Shown here: positions 3,966 to 35,564 of the stretch, piece after piece | How positions within the stretch are numbered: position 1 is the first letter of the stretch | Layout: each line of letters begins with the position of its first letter | From: SAR202 cluster bacterium bin16 | Lineage (GTDB): Bacteria; Chloroflexota; Dehalococcoidia; Lucifugimonadales; Australimonadaceae | Assembly: GCA_002238425.1 (NCBI GenBank) | Contig: MPMJ01000004.1 | Coordinates: 37,454-101,453, forward strand | Length of the DNA stretch: 64,000 bases | Reading direction: 5' to 3' | Notes under the pieces: model-generated | Seen by the model: the letters and a program-made list of their open reading frames with translations, nothing else | The model's database searches: none | What the model was told of the DNA's origin: nothing | Position numbers and translations under genes: made by a program

Positions 3966-4235
3966 TGTCAGCCTCCTCCATCGCGGGGTCCTTCTCGCGG
4001 CTGCGGAGACTATCGTAAGGGCGGACCGACCGCGAGTCTACCGGCCATACCCGCCGTCGCCAGGTTCTCCTCGATGGCCACGTCGAGCCGCGCTGCCTCG
4101 GCCGGCTGCTCGCGCCATTGCGCGGCCAGGCACTCTACCTTCCGGGGAACGGTTGCTCCCGCCGCTCCAAACCCCCATTATTCCTCGCGTATCATTGCCG
4201 GACGCGCTCTCACTCTAAGCGCGGAAGGAGTCCCC

Positions 4236-4751
4236 ATGCTGCGCAGCCTCGGCGGGAAGAGCCCGCAGGTCCATCCCACCGCGTTCGTCAGCGAGTTCGC
4301 ATACGTCGTTGGCGACGTCCGCATCGGCGCGTATGCGTCCATCTGGCCGGGGGTCGTGCTTCGCTCCGACCGCGGCACGATGACCATCGGCGAGGGCACC
4401 AACATCCAGGACGGCTCCATCTGCCACGCCGACGGCGACCTCACGATCGGCGACTACGTGACGCTCGGGCACGCGGTCGTGTGTCACGCGGAGACGGTGG
4501 GCGATCACTGCCTGCTGGGGAACAACTGCACGCTCAACGACAAGTCGAACGTGGGGTCGTGGTGCATCGTCGCCGCGGGCGCGGTGCTGCTGGAGGGGCG
4601 CAACGTGCCGGACCGCTCCATCGCCGCGGGCGTGCCGGCGAAGGTGCTCGGCCCGCTCACCGACAAGCACTACGAACTCGTGCAGATGAACGCGGACGAG
4701 TACGTGAAGTTGGGGCAGGAGTACAAGTCGGAGGGGACGTTGGAGGGGTAG
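4236..4751 (+). CDS. Gamma-carbonic-anhydrase-like hexapeptide-repeat (LbH) protein
   Basis: In-frame ATG at 4236 preceded by ggaaggag. Sequence MLRSLGGKSPQVHPTAFVSEFAYVVGDVRIG...IGEGTNIQDGSICHADGD shows the left-handed beta-helix repeats and His ligand pattern of the gamma-CA/YrdA family. Confidence 0.85.
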   Translation: MLRSLGGKSPQVHPTAFVSEFAYVVGDVRIGAYASIWPGVVLRSDRGTMTIGEGTNIQDGSICHADGDLTIGDYVTLGHAVVCHAETVGDHCLLGNNCTLNDKSNVGSWCIVAAGAVLLEGRNVPDRSIAAGVPAKVLGPLTDKHYELVQMNADEYVKLGQEYKSEGTLEG

Positions 4752-29045: not shown

Positions 29046-30437
29046 ATGAGCCCCATAGTGCGTGGGCTGACGATGCTTTACCTGACGACGATCCTGCTCG
29101 GGTTCGCGCACGGGATGCTGCCCCCTATCATCCCGGTCCTTGCGAACGAGTTCCACATCTCAGGAGGGTTCGCGGCGCAGGTGGTCACCGCCTTCACCGC
29201 GGGGCGGCTGATCGGCCAGCCGGTCGGCGGAACGCTGATCGACAAGTTCGGCACGAAGCCGGCGGTCATCGGTGGGCCAATCATCATCGGAATCTCGGTA
29301 TCGATCGGTATCGTGACGCCGTGGTTCTGGCCGTTGCTCTTGGGGCTGTTCGTTGCGGGCGCCGCGGACAGCGTCTGGATGCTGGGACGTGAGGTTGCAG
29401 GCGTGGACCTGGTGAAGGCGAACCAGCGCGGACGGCTCATGAGCGGGTTCATGGGTTTCCACGGCGTGGGAATGGGACTCGGGGCGTGGCTGGGCGGGAC
29501 CGTGGGCGAGGAGATGGGCGCAACGGTCGTGTTCGGCATCTACACCGCTATCGCGGCGTTCGTCTTCTTCATCAGCGTGCTCATCCCCAGCGCCGACCGG
29601 CCGAAGGCCGCTCCTGCCGCAAGGCTCCCGGTCGAGGACGTCAGGGAAGGGAGCCAACTGGACCGCGTGCGCAACCTCTATCTGCAGATCGACCCGCGCC
29701 TCAGGGCGACGTACATCGTGCTGGTGTTCGCGACGGCGAGCATGATGCTCTACCGCATGGCGTACCAGGCCATCCTGCCCCTGCACATGGACGAGATCGG
29801 GCTGGACCCCAGCCAGATCGGCGAACTCTTCGCCGTCGTTGCCATCGGCTCGCTGGTGATGATCGTGCCGGCGGGGTTCGTTGTGGACAAGATCGGGCGG
29901 AAGTGGGCGACCGTGCCGAGCACGGCGATACCCGGCATCGCCTTCCTGTTCATCCCGTTCACGGGCGACATGGGGCCGCTCATCGCGATAGCCGTGCTCA
30001 TGGGCTTCTCGAACGGACTGTCACTGGGGTCGGTCGCCACGTCCACGTACGACGTCGCGCCGGATGCGATACGCGCGCGGCTGCAGGCGGCGCGGCGGAC
30101 GGTCGCGGAGGTGGGCGCCATCACGGGCCCGCTGCTCGGCGGGTTCATCGCGGTGCAGTTCGGAGCGGGTACTGCATTCTTCGTGTACGCGCCGGTGTTG
30201 CTCCTGGCTGCGATACTGTTGCTGTTCGTCGCCCGCGAGACGCTCGTGAAGGTCTCGGCCGCCGCAGCGTCCCTCGGGAACGGAGAACCCGTCTCCGGCC
30301 TCGCGCTCCTGAAGTCGATTCCGGTGCTGCTCATCGGCGCTGCGCTGCTGGTGTTCGTCGCGCGGAGCAGGCGGACGAAGCGTCTGACGGATGAGGGTTC
30401 CCGCGACCGCAGCGCCGCAGGTGCGGACCGCTCGTGA
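29046..30437 (+). CDS. MFS transporter
   Basis: 463-aa ORF with about 12 predicted hydrophobic helices and the MFS loop motif [17 protein letters not shown]. Confidence 0.85.
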
Positions 30438-30577
30438 TACGGGGCCTCGCGCAGCGCACGCCGTTCTACTACGGGGGGGTCGGCGCTGGGGCGGGGGTGG
30501 TGCCCGTGGTGGATGCGGGGCCCGGCGCGGGCCACGCCGTTCTACTACGGGTGGGTCGTCGCTGGTGCGGTGCTGAT
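30436..30577 (+). repeat. Direct duplication (about 66 bp, about 80% identical, 75-bp offset) of the 5' end of the second MFS gene
   Basis: Copy 1 is gatacggggcctcgcgcagcgcacgccgttctactacgggggggtcggcgctgg (30436-30500). Copy 2 is gatgcggggcccggcgcgggccacgccgttctactacgggtgggtcgtcgctgg (30511-30577). Confidence 0.7.
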
Positions 30578-31760
30578 GACGATGACGATCAGCGGGGCTG
30601 TCGCCGCCCCGATGTTCAGCGTCTTCATCCCCCGGTGGTCGGACGAGTTCGGCTGGTCGCGCACGGCCATCTCCGGCGCGTTCAGCTTCGGGACGGTCGC
30701 AGCCGCGCTGGCAGGGCCGCTGGTCGGCAGGGCGCTCGACAAGTACGGCGGGCGGTGGGTGATGGGTGGCGGCGGGCTGCTCATGGCGGCCTCGGTTGCG
30801 GGACTGGGGTTCGTGGGGAACCTCGTGGGCCTCTACGCCGCGCTCGTGGTCGCGCGAACGGCGTTGATGAGCATCCAGAACCTGGGCGGGCACACGGTCA
30901 TCGCCAACTGGTTCGTGCAACGGAGGGCGTTCGCGACGGCGGTCGCGGTGAACGGAAGCCGCCTGGGGCTGGGGCTGTGGCCGCTGCTGGGGGCCGCGCT
31001 CATCGCTGTGATGGGCTGGCGGGAGGCGCTGTGGATGGTCGGCGCGCTCATGGCGCTGTTTTCGTTCTTCCCGCTCATCGCCATCGTGTCGCGGCAGCCG
31101 GAGGACGTGGGGCTGTACCCGGACGGGCGTCCACCGCTCCCTGCCCACGAGGCCCAGTCGCGACAGGTGCGTGCCGAGCACCAGTGGCGTCCACGGGAGG
31201 CACTGCATACGCATGCGTTCTGGTTGTTGCTGTTCGCGCACATGGGCGCGATGGTGGCGGGCGGGGGCTACGGCCTGCACCGCATACCGCTCTTCCTCGA
31301 CCGGGGCCTCGCGGAAGGGTGGGTAGGGCCGGTGCTGATGTTCCACGCGGTGGGCATGCTCGTCGGTGGGTTCGTCGCCGCATGGTTCATGGGACGCACG
31401 TCCTACCGCGTCGTCATCGCGGGGTGCATGGCGGGCGCGTCGGCGGCGATGGCGGCTGCAGGTTTCATTCCCCCGGGTGTGCCGATGGCCGTCTTCACGT
31501 TTGCGGAATCGATGGTTTTCGGCGGCGTTTTCGCGATGTTGCCCGTCGTTTACGCCGAATATTTCGGGCGCGACTCGCTTGGAACGATACGAGGTATCGC
31601 GCATCCGGCGGTGGTGGCGTCGAACGCGGTCGGGCCGGTCTTCGCGGGATACGTGTTCGAATCGTCGGGGGCGTACACGATGGCGCTCGTTACCTTCAGC
31701 GTCGTGTTGGGCGTGGGGGCAGTCAGCGCGCTGCTGGCGCGCCGCCCGGTCCTGCGCTGA
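30513..31760 (+). CDS. MFS transporter (second, oxalate/formate-antiporter-like layout)
   Basis: 415-aa ORF with 12 hydrophobic segments and an AGPLVGRALDKYGGR loop motif. Confidence 0.85.
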   Translation: MRGPARATPFYYGWVVAGAVLMTMTISGAVAAPMFSVFIPRWSDEFGWSRTAISGAFSFGTVAAALAGPLVGRALDKYGGRWVMGGGGLLMAASVAGLGFVGNLVGLYAALVVARTALMSIQNLGGHTVIANWFVQRRAFATAVAVNGSRLGLGLWPLLGAALIAVMGWREALWMVGALMALFSFFPLIAIVSRQPEDVGLYPDGRPPLPAHEAQSRQVRAEHQWRPREALHTHAFWLLLFAHMGAMVAGGGYGLHRIPLFLDRGLAEGWVGPVLMFHAVGMLVGGFVAAWFMGRTSYRVVIAGCMAGASAAMAAAGFIPPGVPMAVFTFAESMVFGGVFAMLPVVYAEYFGRDSLGTIRGIAHPAVVASNAVGPVFAGYVFESSGAYTMALVTFSVVLGVGAVSALLARRPVLR

Positions 31761-31821
31761 GGAAGCAGAGCCTGGAAATCGGCGATGTTCGCCATGGGGT
31801 AATCGCAACCAAGTATCAGTT

Positions 31822-31862
31822 TCCGGCACCTTGTTGACACTCGTGCCGGAGAGGTAAACAAT
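31822..31862 (+). promoter_or_regulatory. Candidate sigma70-type promoter (TTGACA-N17-AACAAT) embedded in a perfect 8-bp inverted repeat (tccggcac-N13-gtgccgga)
   Basis: The -35 element is at 31834-31839, between the IR arms at 31822-31829 and 31843-31850. It lies 50-90 nt upstream of the His/Cys-rich gene (RBS aaggagg at 31901). Confidence 0.4.
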
Positions 31863-31912
31863 CTCTCCTGAATCCACGGCTGATTCTGGGAACGAGCACG
31901 CAAGGAGGAAAG

Positions 31913-32176
31913 ATGACCACTCACGTTCACGAGCATGACCACAGCGAAGCGGGTGACCACTGCCACGAGCACGAGGGCGAGCATTGCCATAGCCATGGCG
32001 ATGTGCACTGCCACGAGCACGGCGCGGGCCACTGCCACGTCCACGGCGACGAGGCATGCGCGTCCCTCGGCGGGGGCGAGCAGTTCGACGAGCACGGCGC
32101 CGAGCACTGCCACCAGCACGGCGAGGAGCACTGCGCGGACGCGGACGACCCGCACCACGCACCCCACGCAGCGTAA
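31913..32176 (+). CDS. Small His/Cys-rich metal-binding protein with repeated (D/E)HCH motifs
   Basis: 87 aa: MTTHVHEHDHSEAGDHCHEHEGEHCHSHGDVHCHEHGAGHCHVHGDEAC...EHCHQHGEEHCADADDPHH. Strong RBS. I recognise no family. Confidence 0.7.
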   Translation: MTTHVHEHDHSEAGDHCHEHEGEHCHSHGDVHCHEHGAGHCHVHGDEACASLGGGEQFDEHGAEHCHQHGEEHCADADDPHHAPHAA

Positions 32177-32229
32177 GGTCTCAAGAAGAGTGCTATAGTG
32201 CCGGTTGATAGCCGGTAAGGCAGCTTGGG

Positions 32230-32265
32230 CGGCGGCCTGGGGATACCGGGCCGCCGTCTTTGTGT
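32230..32265 (+). terminator. Stem-loop followed by tctttgtgt (intrinsic-terminator-like / attenuator) between the HCH gene and the CDF gene
   Basis: Stem cggcggcc(ugg)/(cc g)ggccgccg spans 32230-32256 and is followed by a T-rich tail. RBS aaggag at 32267 and GTG at 32283 follow directly. Confidence 0.5.
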
Positions 32266-32282
32266 AAAGGAGCCGTGTCGTT

Positions 32283-33647
32283 GTGACAACTGAACACCGC
32301 CACGAGGATGAGGGCGACGATCACGACGAGCATGAGCATGGCCACGAGGGCCATGACCATGACGCGCACGCCGAGCACGACCATGGCCACGAGGGCCATG
32401 ACCATGATGCGCACGCGGAGCACGACCATGGCCACGAAGGCCACGACCACGACGCGCATGCCGAGCACGACCATGGCCACGAGGGCCACGACCACGACGC
32501 GCACGCCGAGCACGACCATGGCCACGAAGACCACGACCACGACGCGCACGCCGGGCATGACCATGGCCACGAGGGCCACGACCATGATGCGCACGCCGAG
32601 CATGATCACGGCCACGAAGACCACGACCACGACGCGCACGCCGGGCATGAGCATGATGATCACGGGCACGGCGGGCACGACCACCACGGACATGGCCACG
32701 AGGGCCACGACCATGACCACGCCCACGACCTGCGCGGAGCAAGCAAGAAAAGCCTTGTCATCGCCCTGGCGCTAATCTCCAGTTTCATGTTCGTAGAGGT
32801 GGTGGGCGGCGTACTGTCGGGGAGCCTTGCGCTGCTCGCGGATGCGGGCCACATGCTCACGGACGCCGCGGCGATCCTGCTCGCGCTCTTCGCCATGTGG
32901 ATAGCGGAGCGCCCCGCGTCGGTCGAGAGCACGTTCGGCTACTACAGAACCGAAGTGCTTGCCGCGCTGGCCAATACGCTCAGCCTGTGGCTCATAGCGG
33001 GCTGGATATTCTTCGAGGCATACCACCGCATCAGGGATACGCCCGAGGTCGAGGGGCCGCTGCTCCTCGGAGTCGGCGCGGCGGGTCTGGTCGTCAACAT
33101 CCTGGCGGCCTACGTCCTCCACCGCGCGGCGGGCGAGAGCCTGAACGCCGAGGGCGCGTTCCAGCACGTCATGGCGGACCTGTTCGGCTCCATCGGCGTC
33201 GTGGTATCGGGCGTGCTGATCCTCGCGTTCGCGACGAGCCCGGACTCCCCCTGGTTCATCGTCGACCCTATCCTGAGCATCGGCATCGGCCTGCTCATCC
33301 TGCGGAGTTCCTGGGGCCTGTTCATGCGGGTGTTCAACGTGCTCATCGAAGGCACGCCCAAGCACCTGGACATGTACCGCATCTGCAGCGACATGGAAGA
33401 CGTCCCCGGCGTGACCATCATCCACGACGTACACGCCTGGACGATCACTTCCGGGTACGACGCTATGACCGCGCACGTGCTGGTGGACTCCGCCCAACGC
33501 GGCAAGGAGGACGACATGCTCGCCCGGCTGCGTGAGATCGCCTACGGCTACGGCCTCGGCCACGTGACCTTGCAGTTGGAGTACTCCGCCACGGATTGCG
33601 AGGAGAACCACCACGTCGAGCACCTGGTAGCGCGTTCGCGGGCATAA
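32283..33647 (+). CDS. Cation diffusion facilitator (CzcD/ZitB-type) exporter with about 150-aa His-rich N-terminal extension
   Basis: The core from SLVIALALISSFMFVEVVGGVLSGSLALLADAGHMLTD onward shows the CDF TM2 HxxxD and TM5 motifs. The N-terminus consists of HDHGHEGHDHDAHAE repeats. Confidence 0.9.
   Translation: MTTEHRHEDEGDDHDEHEHGHEGHDHDAHAEHDHGHEGHDHDAHAEHDHGHEGHDHDAHAEHDHGHEGHDHDAHAEHDHGHEDHDHDAHAGHDHGHEGHDHDAHAEHDHGHEDHDHDAHAGHEHDDHGHGGHDHHGHGHEGHDHDHAHDLRGASKKSLVIALALISSFMFVEVVGGVLSGSLALLADAGHMLTDAAAILLALFAMWIAERPASVESTFGYYRTEVLAALANTLSLWLIAGWIFFEAYHRIRDTPEVEGPLLLGVGAAGLVVNILAAYVLHRAAGESLNAEGAFQHVMADLFGSIGVVVSGVLILAFATSPDSPWFIVDPILSIGIGLLILRSSWGLFMRVFNVLIEGTPKHLDMYRICSDMEDVPGVTIIHDVHAWTITSGYDAMTAHVLVDSAQRGKEDDMLARLREIAYGYGLGHVTLQLEYSATDCEENHHVEHLVARSRA
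32337..32651 (+). repeat. Seven tandem copies of a 45-bp coding repeat (HDHGHEGHDHDAHAE unit)
   Basis: Unit catggccacgagggccatgaccatgacgcgcacgccgagcacgac starts at 32337, 32382, 32427, 32472, 32517, 32562 and 32607, with a few substitutions per copy. Confidence 0.9.
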
Positions 33648-33668
33648 CGGCTGGGGCAGATACACACG

Positions 33669-33698
33669 GGAGAGGGGGCGCAACAGCGCTCCCTCTTC
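33669..33698 (+). terminator. Long imperfect hairpin after the CDF gene (no U-tract)
   Basis: gggagagggggcgc-aaca-gcgctccctcttc forms about 12 bp including wobble pairs. Confidence 0.35.
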
Positions 33699-33774
33699 AT
33701 GTCCGGCGCCGACAACGCGATGCTCGCTTGCCGTTGCGTTCCCCGCCTCGTAACCTTCCGCTCGGAGGTGGGTT

Positions 33775-34599
33775 ATGGCTGACTATCCCCGGAACGACCT
33801 GCTCGTCGAGACCGGCTGGCTCGCGGAGCATCTGACGGACCCGAACGTACGCGTCATCGAGATGGCGCAGGACGGCAGCGACTTCGAGGCCGGGCATATC
33901 CCCGGCGCGGCGCTCTCGCCGACCTGGCAGGTCAAGGGCTCGGAGCAGAAAAGGCTCGTCGCGCCGCCGGACGAGGCGAAGGCGTGGTTCGAGTCCGTGG
34001 GTATCGGCGACGACACGCTCGTCGTGGGGTACGACCGCTTCCACAGCCGGGACGCATCGCGCCTCTGGTGGGTGCTGAACTACTACGGACACACCAACGT
34101 TCGCGTCCTGAACGGCGGGTGGACGAAATGGATCGCGGAGGGGCGCGACGTCGAGGCCGGCCCTTCACAGGTGACCGGCGGCGGCGTGACCTTCACTCCG
34201 CAGCCTCCGAACCATGACATCGAATCGGACGTCGACAAACTCAAGGCCGCGGTTGGCGCGGACGACACCGTCATCTGGGACGTGCGGACGGAGGACGAGT
34301 ACACGGGAGCGAACTCGCGCGGCAACGCTCGGGTAGGGCACGTGCCCGGCGCGGCGTTCCTGGAGTGGGTGCATCTCGTGGCGGACGACGACACCTTCAA
34401 GTCCGCGGAGGAGATCGAGGAGATAGCGCGCGGGCTCGGCATCACGCCGGAGAAGACGGTCCACGTCTACTGACAGGGCGGGGTGCGTGCGTCGCACGCC
34501 ATGCTCGCCCTCAAGCTCATCGGCCACGAGTCTGTGTGCATGTACGACGGCTCGATGGGCGAGTGGGCCAACCGGGACGATACCCCGCTGGAGGTGTAG
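33775..34599 (+). CDS. Two-domain rhodanese (thiosulfate/3-mercaptopyruvate sulfurtransferase family) with in-frame TGA (candidate selenocysteine) at the active-site position, 34471-34473
   Basis: ORF 33775..34473 stops at ..EKTVHVY-TGA. The same frame continues QGGVRASHAMLALKLIGHESVCMYDGSMGEWANRDDTPLEV to TAG at 34597-34599. The TGA occupies the catalytic Cys of the rhodanese C-x-x-G-x-R-(S/T/A) loop. Confidence 0.8.
34485..34499 (+). promoter_or_regulatory. Candidate bacterial SECIS hairpin (6-bp stem, GUC loop) 11 nt after the UGA
   Basis: gcgugc-guc-gcacgc gives perfect Watson-Crick pairs between 34485-34490 and 34494-34499. An outer helix agggcg/cgcccu (34475-34480 / 34506-34511) encloses it. 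Confidence 0.6.
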
Positions 34600-34662
34600 G
34601 CGCATCGCCTACGGGGGGCGGGGCACAATCCCGTAACCTACTCCCGCCACGCCCATCCCCGA

Positions 34663-34722
34663 GTACCCTCACCGCGCGCTAAAGCGCGTTGCCCTCTCCC
34701 TACAAGGGGAGAGGGCAACGCG
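34663..34722. repeat. Family B variant with a 16-bp perfect hairpin (cgcgttgccctctccc / gggagagggcaacgcg) between convergent genes
   Basis: The head gtaccctcacc is followed by a stem at 34685-34700 / 34707-34722 with loop tacaag. A family C tail follows at 34729-34762. Confidence 0.8.
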
Positions 34723-34763
34723 TTCATCGAGAGGGCTCCCGGCTTCGCTCGAAATGACAAGTC

Positions 34764-35564
34764 TCACTCGATGGCGAACACCGCCTGCACGCGCACGCTC
34801 ACCTCGAGTTCGCCGCCGAAGAACTGCGTCGGTGGGCCAGCGGAGTCCATCGCCGCGACCGCGAACCGTGCCTCGGCCACCGGGAACTCATTGAAGCTGC
34901 CCTCCGATATGGAGACGAGCGGGCCGCGAACGACCGATAGCTGCCCTGCGTAGAGGTCGGCCTTCGCGAGGGCGTCCTCGATGGCGAGTATGCGCGCCTC
35001 TTCCTCGAGCGCGCTCGTGTCCTCTATCTGGAATGAGACGCTCTGCACGCGGGTGAGGTCGCCGCCTGCGGTCACCGCGCGGTCCACGACGTCGCCGGTG
35101 GCGTTCAGGTCGCGCAGCGTGACGCTGAGCGTGTTCGTCACCTGGAAGCCGAGCAGTTGCTGCTGTCCGTCGCGCACGTACTCGTAGCGGGGGTTGATGG
35201 AGAAGCGCGCCGTCCGGATGTCGTCCTCGGCGACCCCTGCGGCGCGCAACTCCTCAACGATGGCCGCGAGCGACCGCGCGGCGTCGTCCCGCGCCTCGCT
35301 CACGCTGTCGCGCAGCGCCTCGACGCCCAGCGAGATGACCGCGATGTCCGGCTCGCCGGAGACAGTGCCGACTCCTGCAGCGTGGATGCCGCTGTTCGTG
35401 TCGTAAACGATCGTGCTGTTGCCAGTGCGCAGGTTGGTTGCCGCGGAGCCGTCGGGGTCCCCATTGCCGTCGCCGGAGCAGGCGGCCAACACGGCCACCA
35501 TCACCAGCGCTGCGCTCAGCAGCAGGAGGGTCTTCCTGGCTCCGGATGTCTTGAGGGTGGTCAT
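34764..35564 (-). CDS. SIMPL-domain (DUF541) lipoprotein
   Basis: Trimmed to ATG 35562-35564. The signal peptide has the lipobox LAAC. GFQVTNTLSVTLRDL and GGELEVSVRVQAVFAI are typical of SIMPL/DUF541. Confidence 0.8.
   Translation of the reverse strand: MTTLKTSGARKTLLLLSAALVMVAVLAACSGDGNGDPDGSAATNLRTGNSTIVYDTNSGIHAAGVGTVSGEPDIAVISLGVEALRDSVSEARDDAARSLAAIVEELRAAGVAEDDIRTARFSINPRYEYVRDGQQQLLGFQVTNTLSVTLRDLNATGDVVDRAVTAGGDLTRVQSVSFQIEDTSALEEEARILAIEDALAKADLYAGQLSVVRGPLVSISEGSFNEFPVAEARFAVAAMDSAGPPTQFFGGELEVSVRVQAVFAIE

Follow-up and report, generated by a model that had tools for sequence, protein, structure and literature searches.

Closest described systems

The ligand set of bacterial metallothioneins consists of about nine Cys and two His residues, which hold a Zn4 cluster. 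A protein with another ligand set is encoded in the stretch of DNA analysed here (hereafter, the window), 64,000 nucleotides (nt) of contig MPMJ01000004.1 of SAR202 cluster bacterium bin16, the 3.2-Mb assembly of which consists of 101 contigs and belongs to Dehalococcoidia (Chloroflexota). This is an 87-aa protein with repeated His-Cys-His triplets (the HCH protein), the gene of which lies upstream of a gene for an exporter from the family of cation diffusion facilitators (CDF). Among described proteins, BmtA and SmtA, especially BmtA of Synechococcus sp. WH8102 (PMC9337993), are like the HCH protein in being small cytoplasmic Cys/His proteins with putative binding or banking of several Zn(II) ions. 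The metallothionein gene bmtA of this strain is activated by Zur via boxes overlapping the -35 hexamer and lying beyond it (PMC9337993), and the HCH gene is, similarly, probably controlled by Zur via sites both at the -35 hexamer and upstream of it. Zur also activates the exporter gene zitB in S. coelicolor, from a box located 8 nt upstream of the -35 hexamer (PMC5472717). Unlike the metallothioneins, to which it shows no similarity (the model Metallothio_Pro was not matched), the HCH protein contains 24 His and 7 Cys residues against the Cys9His2 set of SmtA, has a regular repeat of eight residues instead of a zinc-finger-like fold, and has a CDF exporter as its genomic partner.

Hpn and Hpn-2 (Hpn-like) of Helicobacter pylori share with the HCH protein a small size, cytoplasmic location, a very high content of His with few Cys residues, restriction to one lineage and a supposed role in the storage or detoxification of divalent metal. 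However, the Hpn proteins contain poly-His runs and Cys-Cys pairs and serve nickel supply for urease and hydrogenase, whereas the HCH protein is composed of isolated H-C-H-x-H modules in a zinc-type context. No homology of the HCH protein to Hpn was detectable in Pfam, NCBIfam, cluster and representative searches. The initial annotation of this DNA had set the protein apart from both Hpn-type proteins and Cys-rich metallothioneins, and this distinction holds, as shown by the lack of any model match, the reversed Cys:His ratio and the absence of His runs. The nearest functional analogues of the HCH protein are the Zur-activated BmtA and Hpn.

The triplet itself is described in two eukaryotic transporters. 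The N-terminal HCH of ZnT8 (PMC7949119) is the same triplet in a CDF-family system, coordinating cytosolic Zn(II); in ZnT8, however, it is a single motif inside the transporter, described as mammalian-specific, whereas the HCH protein carries five to six copies, is a separate protein and accompanies a bacterial CDF. The C-terminal HCH tail of Ctr1 is likewise a metal-binding and hand-off site beside a transporter; it binds Cu(I) with a dissociation constant (KD) of about 1e-14 M (PMC4805863), and differs in the metal, in belonging to an importer, in being eukaryotic and in being a single motif on the transporter itself. How zinc, nearly all of which is chelated in the cytoplasm, reaches CDF exporters is an open question, and the evidence for zinc metallochaperones is very limited (PMC10617992). 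With a little more confidence than doubt, the HCH protein is interpreted here as a disordered protein of high capacity that buffers or stores Zn(II) in the cytoplasm under the control of Zur, working together with the exporter.

Conservation and distribution of the HCH gene

The genus was represented by 22 species genomes, namely, the genome containing the window and 21 others. A full-length intact HCH open reading frame (ORF) was found in 16 of the 21 other genomes at 82-99% identity, and a shortened 65-aa copy in a 17th genome. For 16 orthologues, mean nonsynonymous divergence (dN) is 0.037 and mean synonymous divergence (dS) is 0.373, giving a dN/dS of 0.10; the GC content at codon positions 1, 2 and 3 of the HCH gene is 0.84, 0.40 and 0.86. 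The HCH gene is real and under strong purifying selection, which settles the question, raised in the initial annotation, of whether the ORF is conserved in relatives. In an alignment of 22 sequences of the family from several lineages, Cys17, Cys25, Cys49 and Cys74 are invariant, Cys33, Cys41 and Cys66 are conserved in at least 90% of sequences, and most His residues are conserved, as are Gly and Asp residues, some of them invariant. The conserved core outside the ligands is represented by HGD-x-x-C-x-x-(I/L)-GG-x-E-x-x-DEHG and DPHH-x-x-HA. In one metagenome-assembled genome (MAG), a conserved GAG (Glu) codon within the HCH gene is replaced by an in-frame TAG (L043:6001-6240), which is taken as a single nonsense lesion or an assembly error.

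The protein was initially reported as belonging to no recognised family, and no match was found for it in Pfam (E <= 1) or NCBIfam (E <= 10), while searches of PDB sequences with the protein and with the family profile gave nothing meaningful. A word-indexed search of 5.8 billion clusters revealed two relatives, and a search of 1.84 billion representative proteins with a hidden Markov model (HMM), the follow-up that had been proposed for homologues and their neighbours, revealed four true relatives of 37-87 aa. None of these relatives in either collection lies outside Chloroflexota, and the HCH module was not found in any larger protein, including CDF fusions, among the 1.84 billion representatives. 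Scanning of 185,579 species genomes yielded 33 HCH loci, for which the pairing with CDF was recorded; every one of them is titled as a Dehalococcoidia or Chloroflexota MAG. Even sampling of the order (401 genomes, 145 genera) showed the HCH gene in two genera of different families, and sampling of the class (222 genera) showed it in the genus of the window alone. A collection of 15 billion predicted proteins does not contain the exact HCH protein of the window, and therefore the HCH gene was missed by gene callers. In the literature, neither an HCH-repeat protein nor a His/Cys protein associated with CDF was found described for Chloroflexi or sponge symbionts.

Composition and repeat structure of the HCH protein

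The translation of the ORF is identical to the sequence originally quoted for it. The 87 residues include 24 His, 7 Cys, 12 Glu, 8 Asp and 11 Gly, i.e., 31 His and Cys ligands and 20 carboxylates of Asp and Glu; the longest His run is of two residues. The five HCH triplets described at the outset start at residues 16, 24, 32, 40 and 65, and the sixth site, with H-C alone, is located at residues 73-74. The initial annotation had not counted the seventh Cys, at residue 49 (GDEAC), which is invariant, and its spacing of 7-8 residues is corrected: Cys17, 25, 33, 41 and 49 are exactly 8 residues apart, followed by intervals of 17 and 8 residues. Tandem Repeats Finder (TRF) identified in 31958-32134 a repeat with a period of 24 nt, 7.2 copies and 65% matches, corresponding to modules which each contain one Cys and three His residues at positions i, i+2 and i+4; two central modules, ACASLGGG and EQFDEHGA, are degenerate. 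Among 11,432 ATG-initiated ORFs of at least 60 aa in the genome, the HCH ORF is alone in combining, in a plausible frame, a His content above 15% with a Cys content above 3%, and it is not a chance by-product of high GC content.

The maximal Kyte-Doolittle hydropathy over 15 residues is 0.05. The protein contains no hydrophobic segment, and therefore no signal peptide, as had been predicted, and no transmembrane (TM) helix. AlphaFold2, run with the alignment of 22 sequences, gave a mean predicted local distance difference test (pLDDT) score of 39.6. Such a model predicts disorder, as expected for an apo metal-binding peptide that would fold only around metal. A chaperone of the HMA type (CopZ/Atx1) was rejected, with no Pfam HMA match, no CxxC motif and a disordered model. 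The start of the HCH protein, M-T-T-H... (31913-31924), resembles the start of the CDF protein, V-T-T-E-H... (32283-32297), in several clades. After removal of Met, the N-terminus Thr-Thr-His would presumably form a Cu(II)/Ni(II) site of the amino-terminal Cu(II)- and Ni(II)-binding (ATCUN) type, according to an established rule.

Association with the CDF exporter

The gene directly downstream of the HCH gene, the start codon of which lies 106 nt beyond it, encodes a CDF exporter, in agreement with the initial annotation; the exporter is ZitB/CzcD-like. It matches Cation_efflux of Pfam at 1.3e-42 and CDF of NCBIfam at 2e-78; the best NCBIfam equivalog is ZitB (240 bits), with 93 bits for DmeF. 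The motif His-x3-Asp is present in both TM2 (HMLTD) and TM5 (HVMAD), and this HD-HD arrangement is that of zinc-selective CDFs. The protein ends with a Cys/His tail, DCEENHHVEH.

Within the genus, the gene order is glyS, two MFS genes, the HCH gene, CDF and rhodanese. A CDF gene lies directly 3' of the HCH gene on the same strand in 28 of the 33 public loci (full length in 27 and truncated in one), and in one further locus the contig ends at this place. The 15 loci outside the genus contain none of the neighbours found in the window, and their flanks include genes of an esterase, GMC oxidoreductase, GHL10 hydrolase, Cu/Zn superoxide dismutase (Cu/Zn-SOD), GFO/IDH oxidoreductase and ABC-3 permease, yet a same-strand CDF gene with a product 69-75% identical follows the HCH gene. 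The pair is kept amid unrelated flanks, and therefore the two genes behave as a cassette. An orthologous CDF without the HCH gene was never seen in the genus, with the exception of one fragmented assembly of 640 contigs.

Three species of the genus (G005, G013 and G017) contain an intact HCH gene with its promoter element and no CzcD-type CDF anywhere in the genome. In another clade, the HCH gene is intact where CDF is absent (L042 and L001) or truncated (L044). The HCH protein is not merely an accessory of the pump, because three species keep its gene without such an exporter, and this persistence favours a buffer over an obligate chaperone.

Two relations between the proteins of the pair were considered and rejected. 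The C-terminal tail of CDF as a docking site for the HCH protein is contradicted by the presence of C...HHVxH equally in related CDFs without an HCH partner. Derivation of the HCH ORF from the His arm of the pump received no BLASTP alignment at E <= 100, and the shared start M/V-T-T-(E)-H is too short.

The part of the CDF gene coding for the N-terminal arm (window 32315-32655) consists of 7.6 copies of a 45-nt unit with 88% matches. This arm differs widely in length from one species to another, with open frames of 354-613 aa, while the 87-aa length of the HCH protein is constant. In a distant genome (L048:7822-10971, minus strand), the HCH-CDF cassette adjoins a convergent operon starting with a gene of ABC-3 (Znu/Mnt-type) permease, and in L045 a Cu/Zn superoxide dismutase gene is located downstream of CDF.

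A second family of Cys/His mini-proteins

In six other genera of the order, which lack the HCH gene, related CDFs (55-63% identity) have a different small Cys/His repeat ORF nearby, adjacent to the pump gene in five genera and about 4 kb away in one. The repeat unit of this family, designated HECD, is about HVHDxHECDxHEHHG and comprises approximately 16 residues; the proteins are acidic and contain 40-108 aa. The HECD family has no Pfam family and no name, and is represented by 28 unnamed clusters in the protein collection. In further metagenome contigs, the HECD ORF adjoins CDF, though not always. HECD and HCH proteins are alike in size class, acidity, Cys/His repeats, position beside ZitB/CzcD-like CDFs and occurrence in the same order, but the HECD unit is about twice as long at ~16 residues and its Cys is flanked by Glu and Asp. 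Homology between them was rejected (hhalign probability 2%, no profile similarity), and the two families are mutually exclusive in genome distribution. The occurrence of two unrelated families of mini-proteins beside one type of pump speaks for selection on the pairing itself.

Promoter of the HCH gene

The strong ribosome-binding site (RBS) and the separate promoter-like region reported for the HCH gene are both present. The Shine-Dalgarno sequence AAGGAGG is kept by the orthologues, and TTGACA-17-AACAAT is the sole promoter-like site in 31500-32600, with 0.2 expected in shuffled sequences. Upstream of the -35 hexamer lies a conserved 20-bp block, ATCGCAACCAAGTATCAGTT; no second copy of it in a comparable context was found in the genome at <=4 mismatches. 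The alignment of upstream regions of the genus also shows conserved TT(A/G)TTGACAC.

The 14-mer AGTATCAGTTTCCG (31812-31825) occurs in the 3.2-Mb genome in exactly two copies, one in the HCH promoter and one in the zur-znuA promoter. In the zur-znuA promoter it is followed 5 nt on by TTGTTGATAC, and in the HCH promoter, at the same distance, by TTGTTGACAC. In the zur-znuA locus, on contig C46, a Fur-family gene (4154-4651, minus strand) immediately precedes znuA in one operon, and another ZnuA-like gene is located on contig C47. Candidate Zur boxes TT(G/A)TTGATAC-NNN-GTATTGACAA, forming a 7-3-7 palindrome, are present in the genome in only two copies, both in these uptake promoters. The second ZnuA-like gene has an open frame of 827 aa with a large insert and a His/acid-rich loop (EDEHGHEE)n.

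The 22 genomes of the genus were searched for the pattern GTATCAKTT-N(8-14)-TTGAYAC, with the reversed pattern as a control. The pattern matched in 17 of the 22 genomes at one or two places each, these being the HCH promoter and/or a position 40-70 nt upstream of zur-znuA, and both places in 13 genomes; the reversed pattern gave no matches in the 22 genomes. In the second genus, GTATCA is located 15 nt upstream of TTGACA at HCH promoters, and the GTATCAT arm is present in zur promoters. Judging from these shared elements, Zur, or a factor that also controls zur-znuA, presumably acts at the HCH promoter, which appears to belong to the Zur regulon.

An 8-bp inverted repeat, TCCGGCAC / GTGCCGGA, around the -35 hexamer (31822-31829 / 31843-31850) was considered as an operator. 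It is perfect, but is found only in the species of the window and its closest relative, with the flanking GTATCAGTT and TTGACAC being conserved, and it is an unlikely operator because it is not shared by the rest of the genus.

Proposed function and alternative explanations

The protein was initially annotated as a cytosolic metal buffer or metallochaperone linked to CDF. Purifying selection, the lack of a family or structure match and the conserved HCH-CDF pair support this assignment; our inference extends to the binding of metal, the identity of the metal as zinc, the role of Zur as regulator, the choice between activation and repression, and any hand-off. Of the metals proposed at first (Zn, Co, Ni or Cd), the choice is narrowed towards Zn by the HD-HD site of CDF and by the promoter element common with zur-znuA; the homologous cassette adjoining an ABC-3 (Znu/Mnt-type) operon is one more clue to zinc. 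By simple count, 31 ligands suffice for roughly 6-8 tetrahedral sites.

As a zinc buffer, the very acidic and presumably abundant and intrinsically disordered HCH protein would bind several divalent ions in the cytoplasm, most probably Zn(II). Via the putative Zur-regulon promoter, the cell would set the level of the protein by zinc status, and, by analogy with Zur-activated bmtA and zitB, expression of the gene would probably be turned on at ample zinc. Surplus zinc would be absorbed or banked by the protein, and the excess would be removed by the ZitB/CzcD-like exporter, presumably acquired with the HCH gene as a cassette of two genes. The HCH protein may pass zinc directly to the pump, but this would not be required.

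Several observations weigh against this interpretation. The HCH promoter lacks the complete 7-3-7 palindrome seen at both uptake promoters, and its element overlaps the -35 hexamer, so that Zn-Zur could repress rather than activate; moreover, a different factor might bind the shared promoter element. Five genomes of the genus without the HCH gene also lack the element at zur, and the element is therefore lineage-specific, while the HCH promoters of two further clades (L045 and L048-L052) show no half-sites. The HCH gene and CDF need not be co-transcribed, because a G+C-rich hairpin and a possible second promoter intervene. Finally, given the binding of Cu(I) by the HCH of Ctr1 and the ATCUN-type N-terminus, the metal could be one other than zinc.

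A dedicated zinc metallochaperone, or a trans-acting 'arm' that would take up cytosolic Zn(II) and deliver it to the His-rich arm or the C-terminal Cys/His tail of CDF, is an alternative which we regard as unlikely, though well worth weighing; it is with the same reserve that the HCH protein may be seen as supplying in trans the ligands which the N-terminal HCH of ZnT8 gives in cis. The same-strand adjacency of the two genes across unrelated flanks, the fact that orthologous CDF was not seen without the HCH gene, and the Cys/His tail of the pump are consistent with such delivery, as is the N-terminal HCH of ZnT8, which completes the zinc sites lying on the adjacent subunit's cytosolic domain (PMC7949119); it has also been considered, with very limited evidence for zinc chaperones, that zinc may reach CDFs as a chelate (PMC10617992). 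However, an intact HCH gene accompanies a missing or truncated exporter in three species of the genus and, in another clade, in at least two genomes, the Cys/His tail is as common in related CDFs without an HCH partner, no HCH-CDF fusion was found among the 1.84 billion representatives, and the length of the His arm of the pump varies freely, whereas the HCH protein is fixed at 87 aa. It is accordingly only tentatively, and with doubt prevailing, that the HCH protein may be proposed as the first dedicated cytoplasmic zinc carrier for a CDF exporter, a detachable Zur-controlled version of the HCH motif of ZnT, which together with the HECD proteins would represent a repeated invention, in marine Chloroflexota, of soluble partners handing zinc to CDF pumps.

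The remaining alternatives change the metal, the sign of regulation or the nature of the product. Binding or detoxification of another metal, Cu(I), Ni(II), Co(II) or Cd(II), in the manner of Hpn or a copper metallothionein, with a coincidental link to zinc, is distinctly unlikely: the KD of the Ctr1 tail for Cu(I) is about 1e-14 M (PMC4805863), the predicted mature Thr-Thr-His would form a Cu(II)/Ni(II) site of the ATCUN type, Cd and Co are also moved by ZitB/CzcD-type pumps, and one homologous cassette adjoins a Cu/Zn superoxide dismutase gene, but the transport site of the exporter is of the HD-HD kind and its score is much higher for ZitB (240 bits) than for the Co/Ni exporter DmeF (93 bits), no CopA/CopZ/CsoR or NikR/RcnR genes are present in the neighbourhoods examined, the promoter element is common with the zur-znuA operon and no other promoter, and no NiCo or other metal riboswitch was found with Rfam. 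Repression by Zur and expression in zinc starvation, the protein being a scavenging reserve or zinc-sparing holder and the exporter a neighbour in a shared zinc island, seem improbable to a greater degree. The downstream half-site does overlap the -35 hexamer, as does the Zur box at both uptake promoters, and L036 and L043 carry a nearly full box, TTATTGATACTGTAGTTACAA, between the -35 hexamer and the RBS, the classical position of a repressor; nevertheless, two unrelated families of mini-proteins are each paired with an exporter, a chelator of high capacity would be a disadvantage when zinc is scarce, and Zur boxes overlapping the -35 hexamer activate at bmtA (PMC9337993). It is hardly credible that the HCH ORF encodes no functional protein and is a His-codon leader attenuating CDF via a hairpin, a precursor of a ribosomally synthesised and post-translationally modified peptide (RiPP), or a decayed His arm of the pump. 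The stable hairpin with a T-rich tail 3' of the ORF and the start M/V-T-T-(E)-H of both the ORF and CDF would fit such a role, whereas Cys, Gly and Asp are invariant as well as His, no BLASTP alignment of the HCH protein with the CDF arm was obtained even at E = 100, and no maturation enzymes are encoded in any neighbourhood examined; a regulatory leader peptide in particular is contradicted by the dN/dS of 0.10 and by the retention of the ORF, unchanged, where CDF and the hairpin are absent.

Should the HCH protein be a zinc buffer, it would be a new, His-dominated answer to the task of metallothioneins and a second case of Zur-controlled zinc banking in a marine bacterium; should it hand zinc over to the pump, the CDF transporter family would have its first such partner. 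The locus is a compact testable system, comprising a 9.4-kDa protein consisting nearly throughout of metal ligands, a partner pump and a probable single regulator. Since gene callers miss the HCH gene, metal handling is under-annotated in these uncultured bacteria. The HCH repeat module may also serve as a compact metal-binding tag.

Feature coordinates and the intergenic segment

Table 1. Features of the HCH locus and of related loci; positions are those of the window unless a contig or locus is named.
Feature	Position	Strand	Remarks
Conserved 20-bp block ATCGCAACCAAGTATCAGTT upstream of -35, candidate regulator (Zur) site	31802..31821	+	near-invariant in 17 orthologous upstream regions
Composite element GTATCAGTT-N12-TTGACAC, two Zur-box-like half-sites, the second overlapping -35	31813..31840	+	
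Sigma-70-like promoter TTGACA-17-AACAAT of the HCH gene	31834..31862	+	10/12 matches; both hexamers conserved across the genus
Shine-Dalgarno sequence AAGGAGG of the HCH gene	31902..31908	+	4 nt before ATG; conserved in orthologues
HCH-repeat protein gene	31913..32176	+	87 aa; 24 His, 7 Cys, pI 5.4; 9.4-kDa
About 7 diverged 24-nt tandem units, each coding for an 8-residue module H-C-H-x-H-G-x-x	31958..32134	+	TRF
Extended -10-like TGCTATAGT, candidate separate promoter of CDF	32191..32199	+	consensus match only; conserved where species of the genus carry CDF
14-bp G+C-rich hairpin followed by TTGTGT, candidate terminator or attenuator	32227..32259	+	fold energy given in the text
ZitB/CzcD-like CDF exporter gene, ~150-aa His-rich N-terminal arm, HD-HD transport site	32283..33647	+	Pfam, NCBIfam
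Candidate Zur box, zur-znuA	C46:4680-4719	-	outside the window
Candidate Zur box, second ZnuA-like gene	C47:7404-7426	-	outside the window
HECD-family ORF	L060:1724-1930	+	
HECD-family ORF	L054:3383-3697	-	
HECD-family ORF	L055:1646-1867	+	
HECD-family ORF	L056:3523-3852	-	
HECD-family ORF	L057:3553-3816	-	

The HCH gene is followed, in this order, by TGCTATAGT, a small hairpin (CCGG...CCGGTA dyad), the 14-bp hairpin, TTGTGT and the RBS of CDF. The fold energy of 32177-32290 is -52.6 kcal/mol (z = -4.3). As far as sequence features can indicate, this layout suggests high expression of the mini-protein, with the pump being expressed separately, by read-through or under attenuation; if the -10 element TGCTATAGT is real, the terminator-like hairpin would lie in the 5' leader of CDF and could be a regulated attenuator. 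An Rfam scan of 30000-35000 at E <= 10 revealed only matches at chance level and no NiCo/czcD or other riboswitch. The sequence TTGATAG in the CDF leader (32206-32212) was rejected as a Zur box: it is unconserved in L010, L012 and L053, where only the CCGG...CCGGTA dyad persists. The intergenic segment with the hairpin is missing wherever CDF is missing. In most other clades examined, a hairpin of differing sequence with a T-rich tail is present at the equivalent place, and one other clade contains a perfect TGGTATAAT at the equivalent intergenic place.

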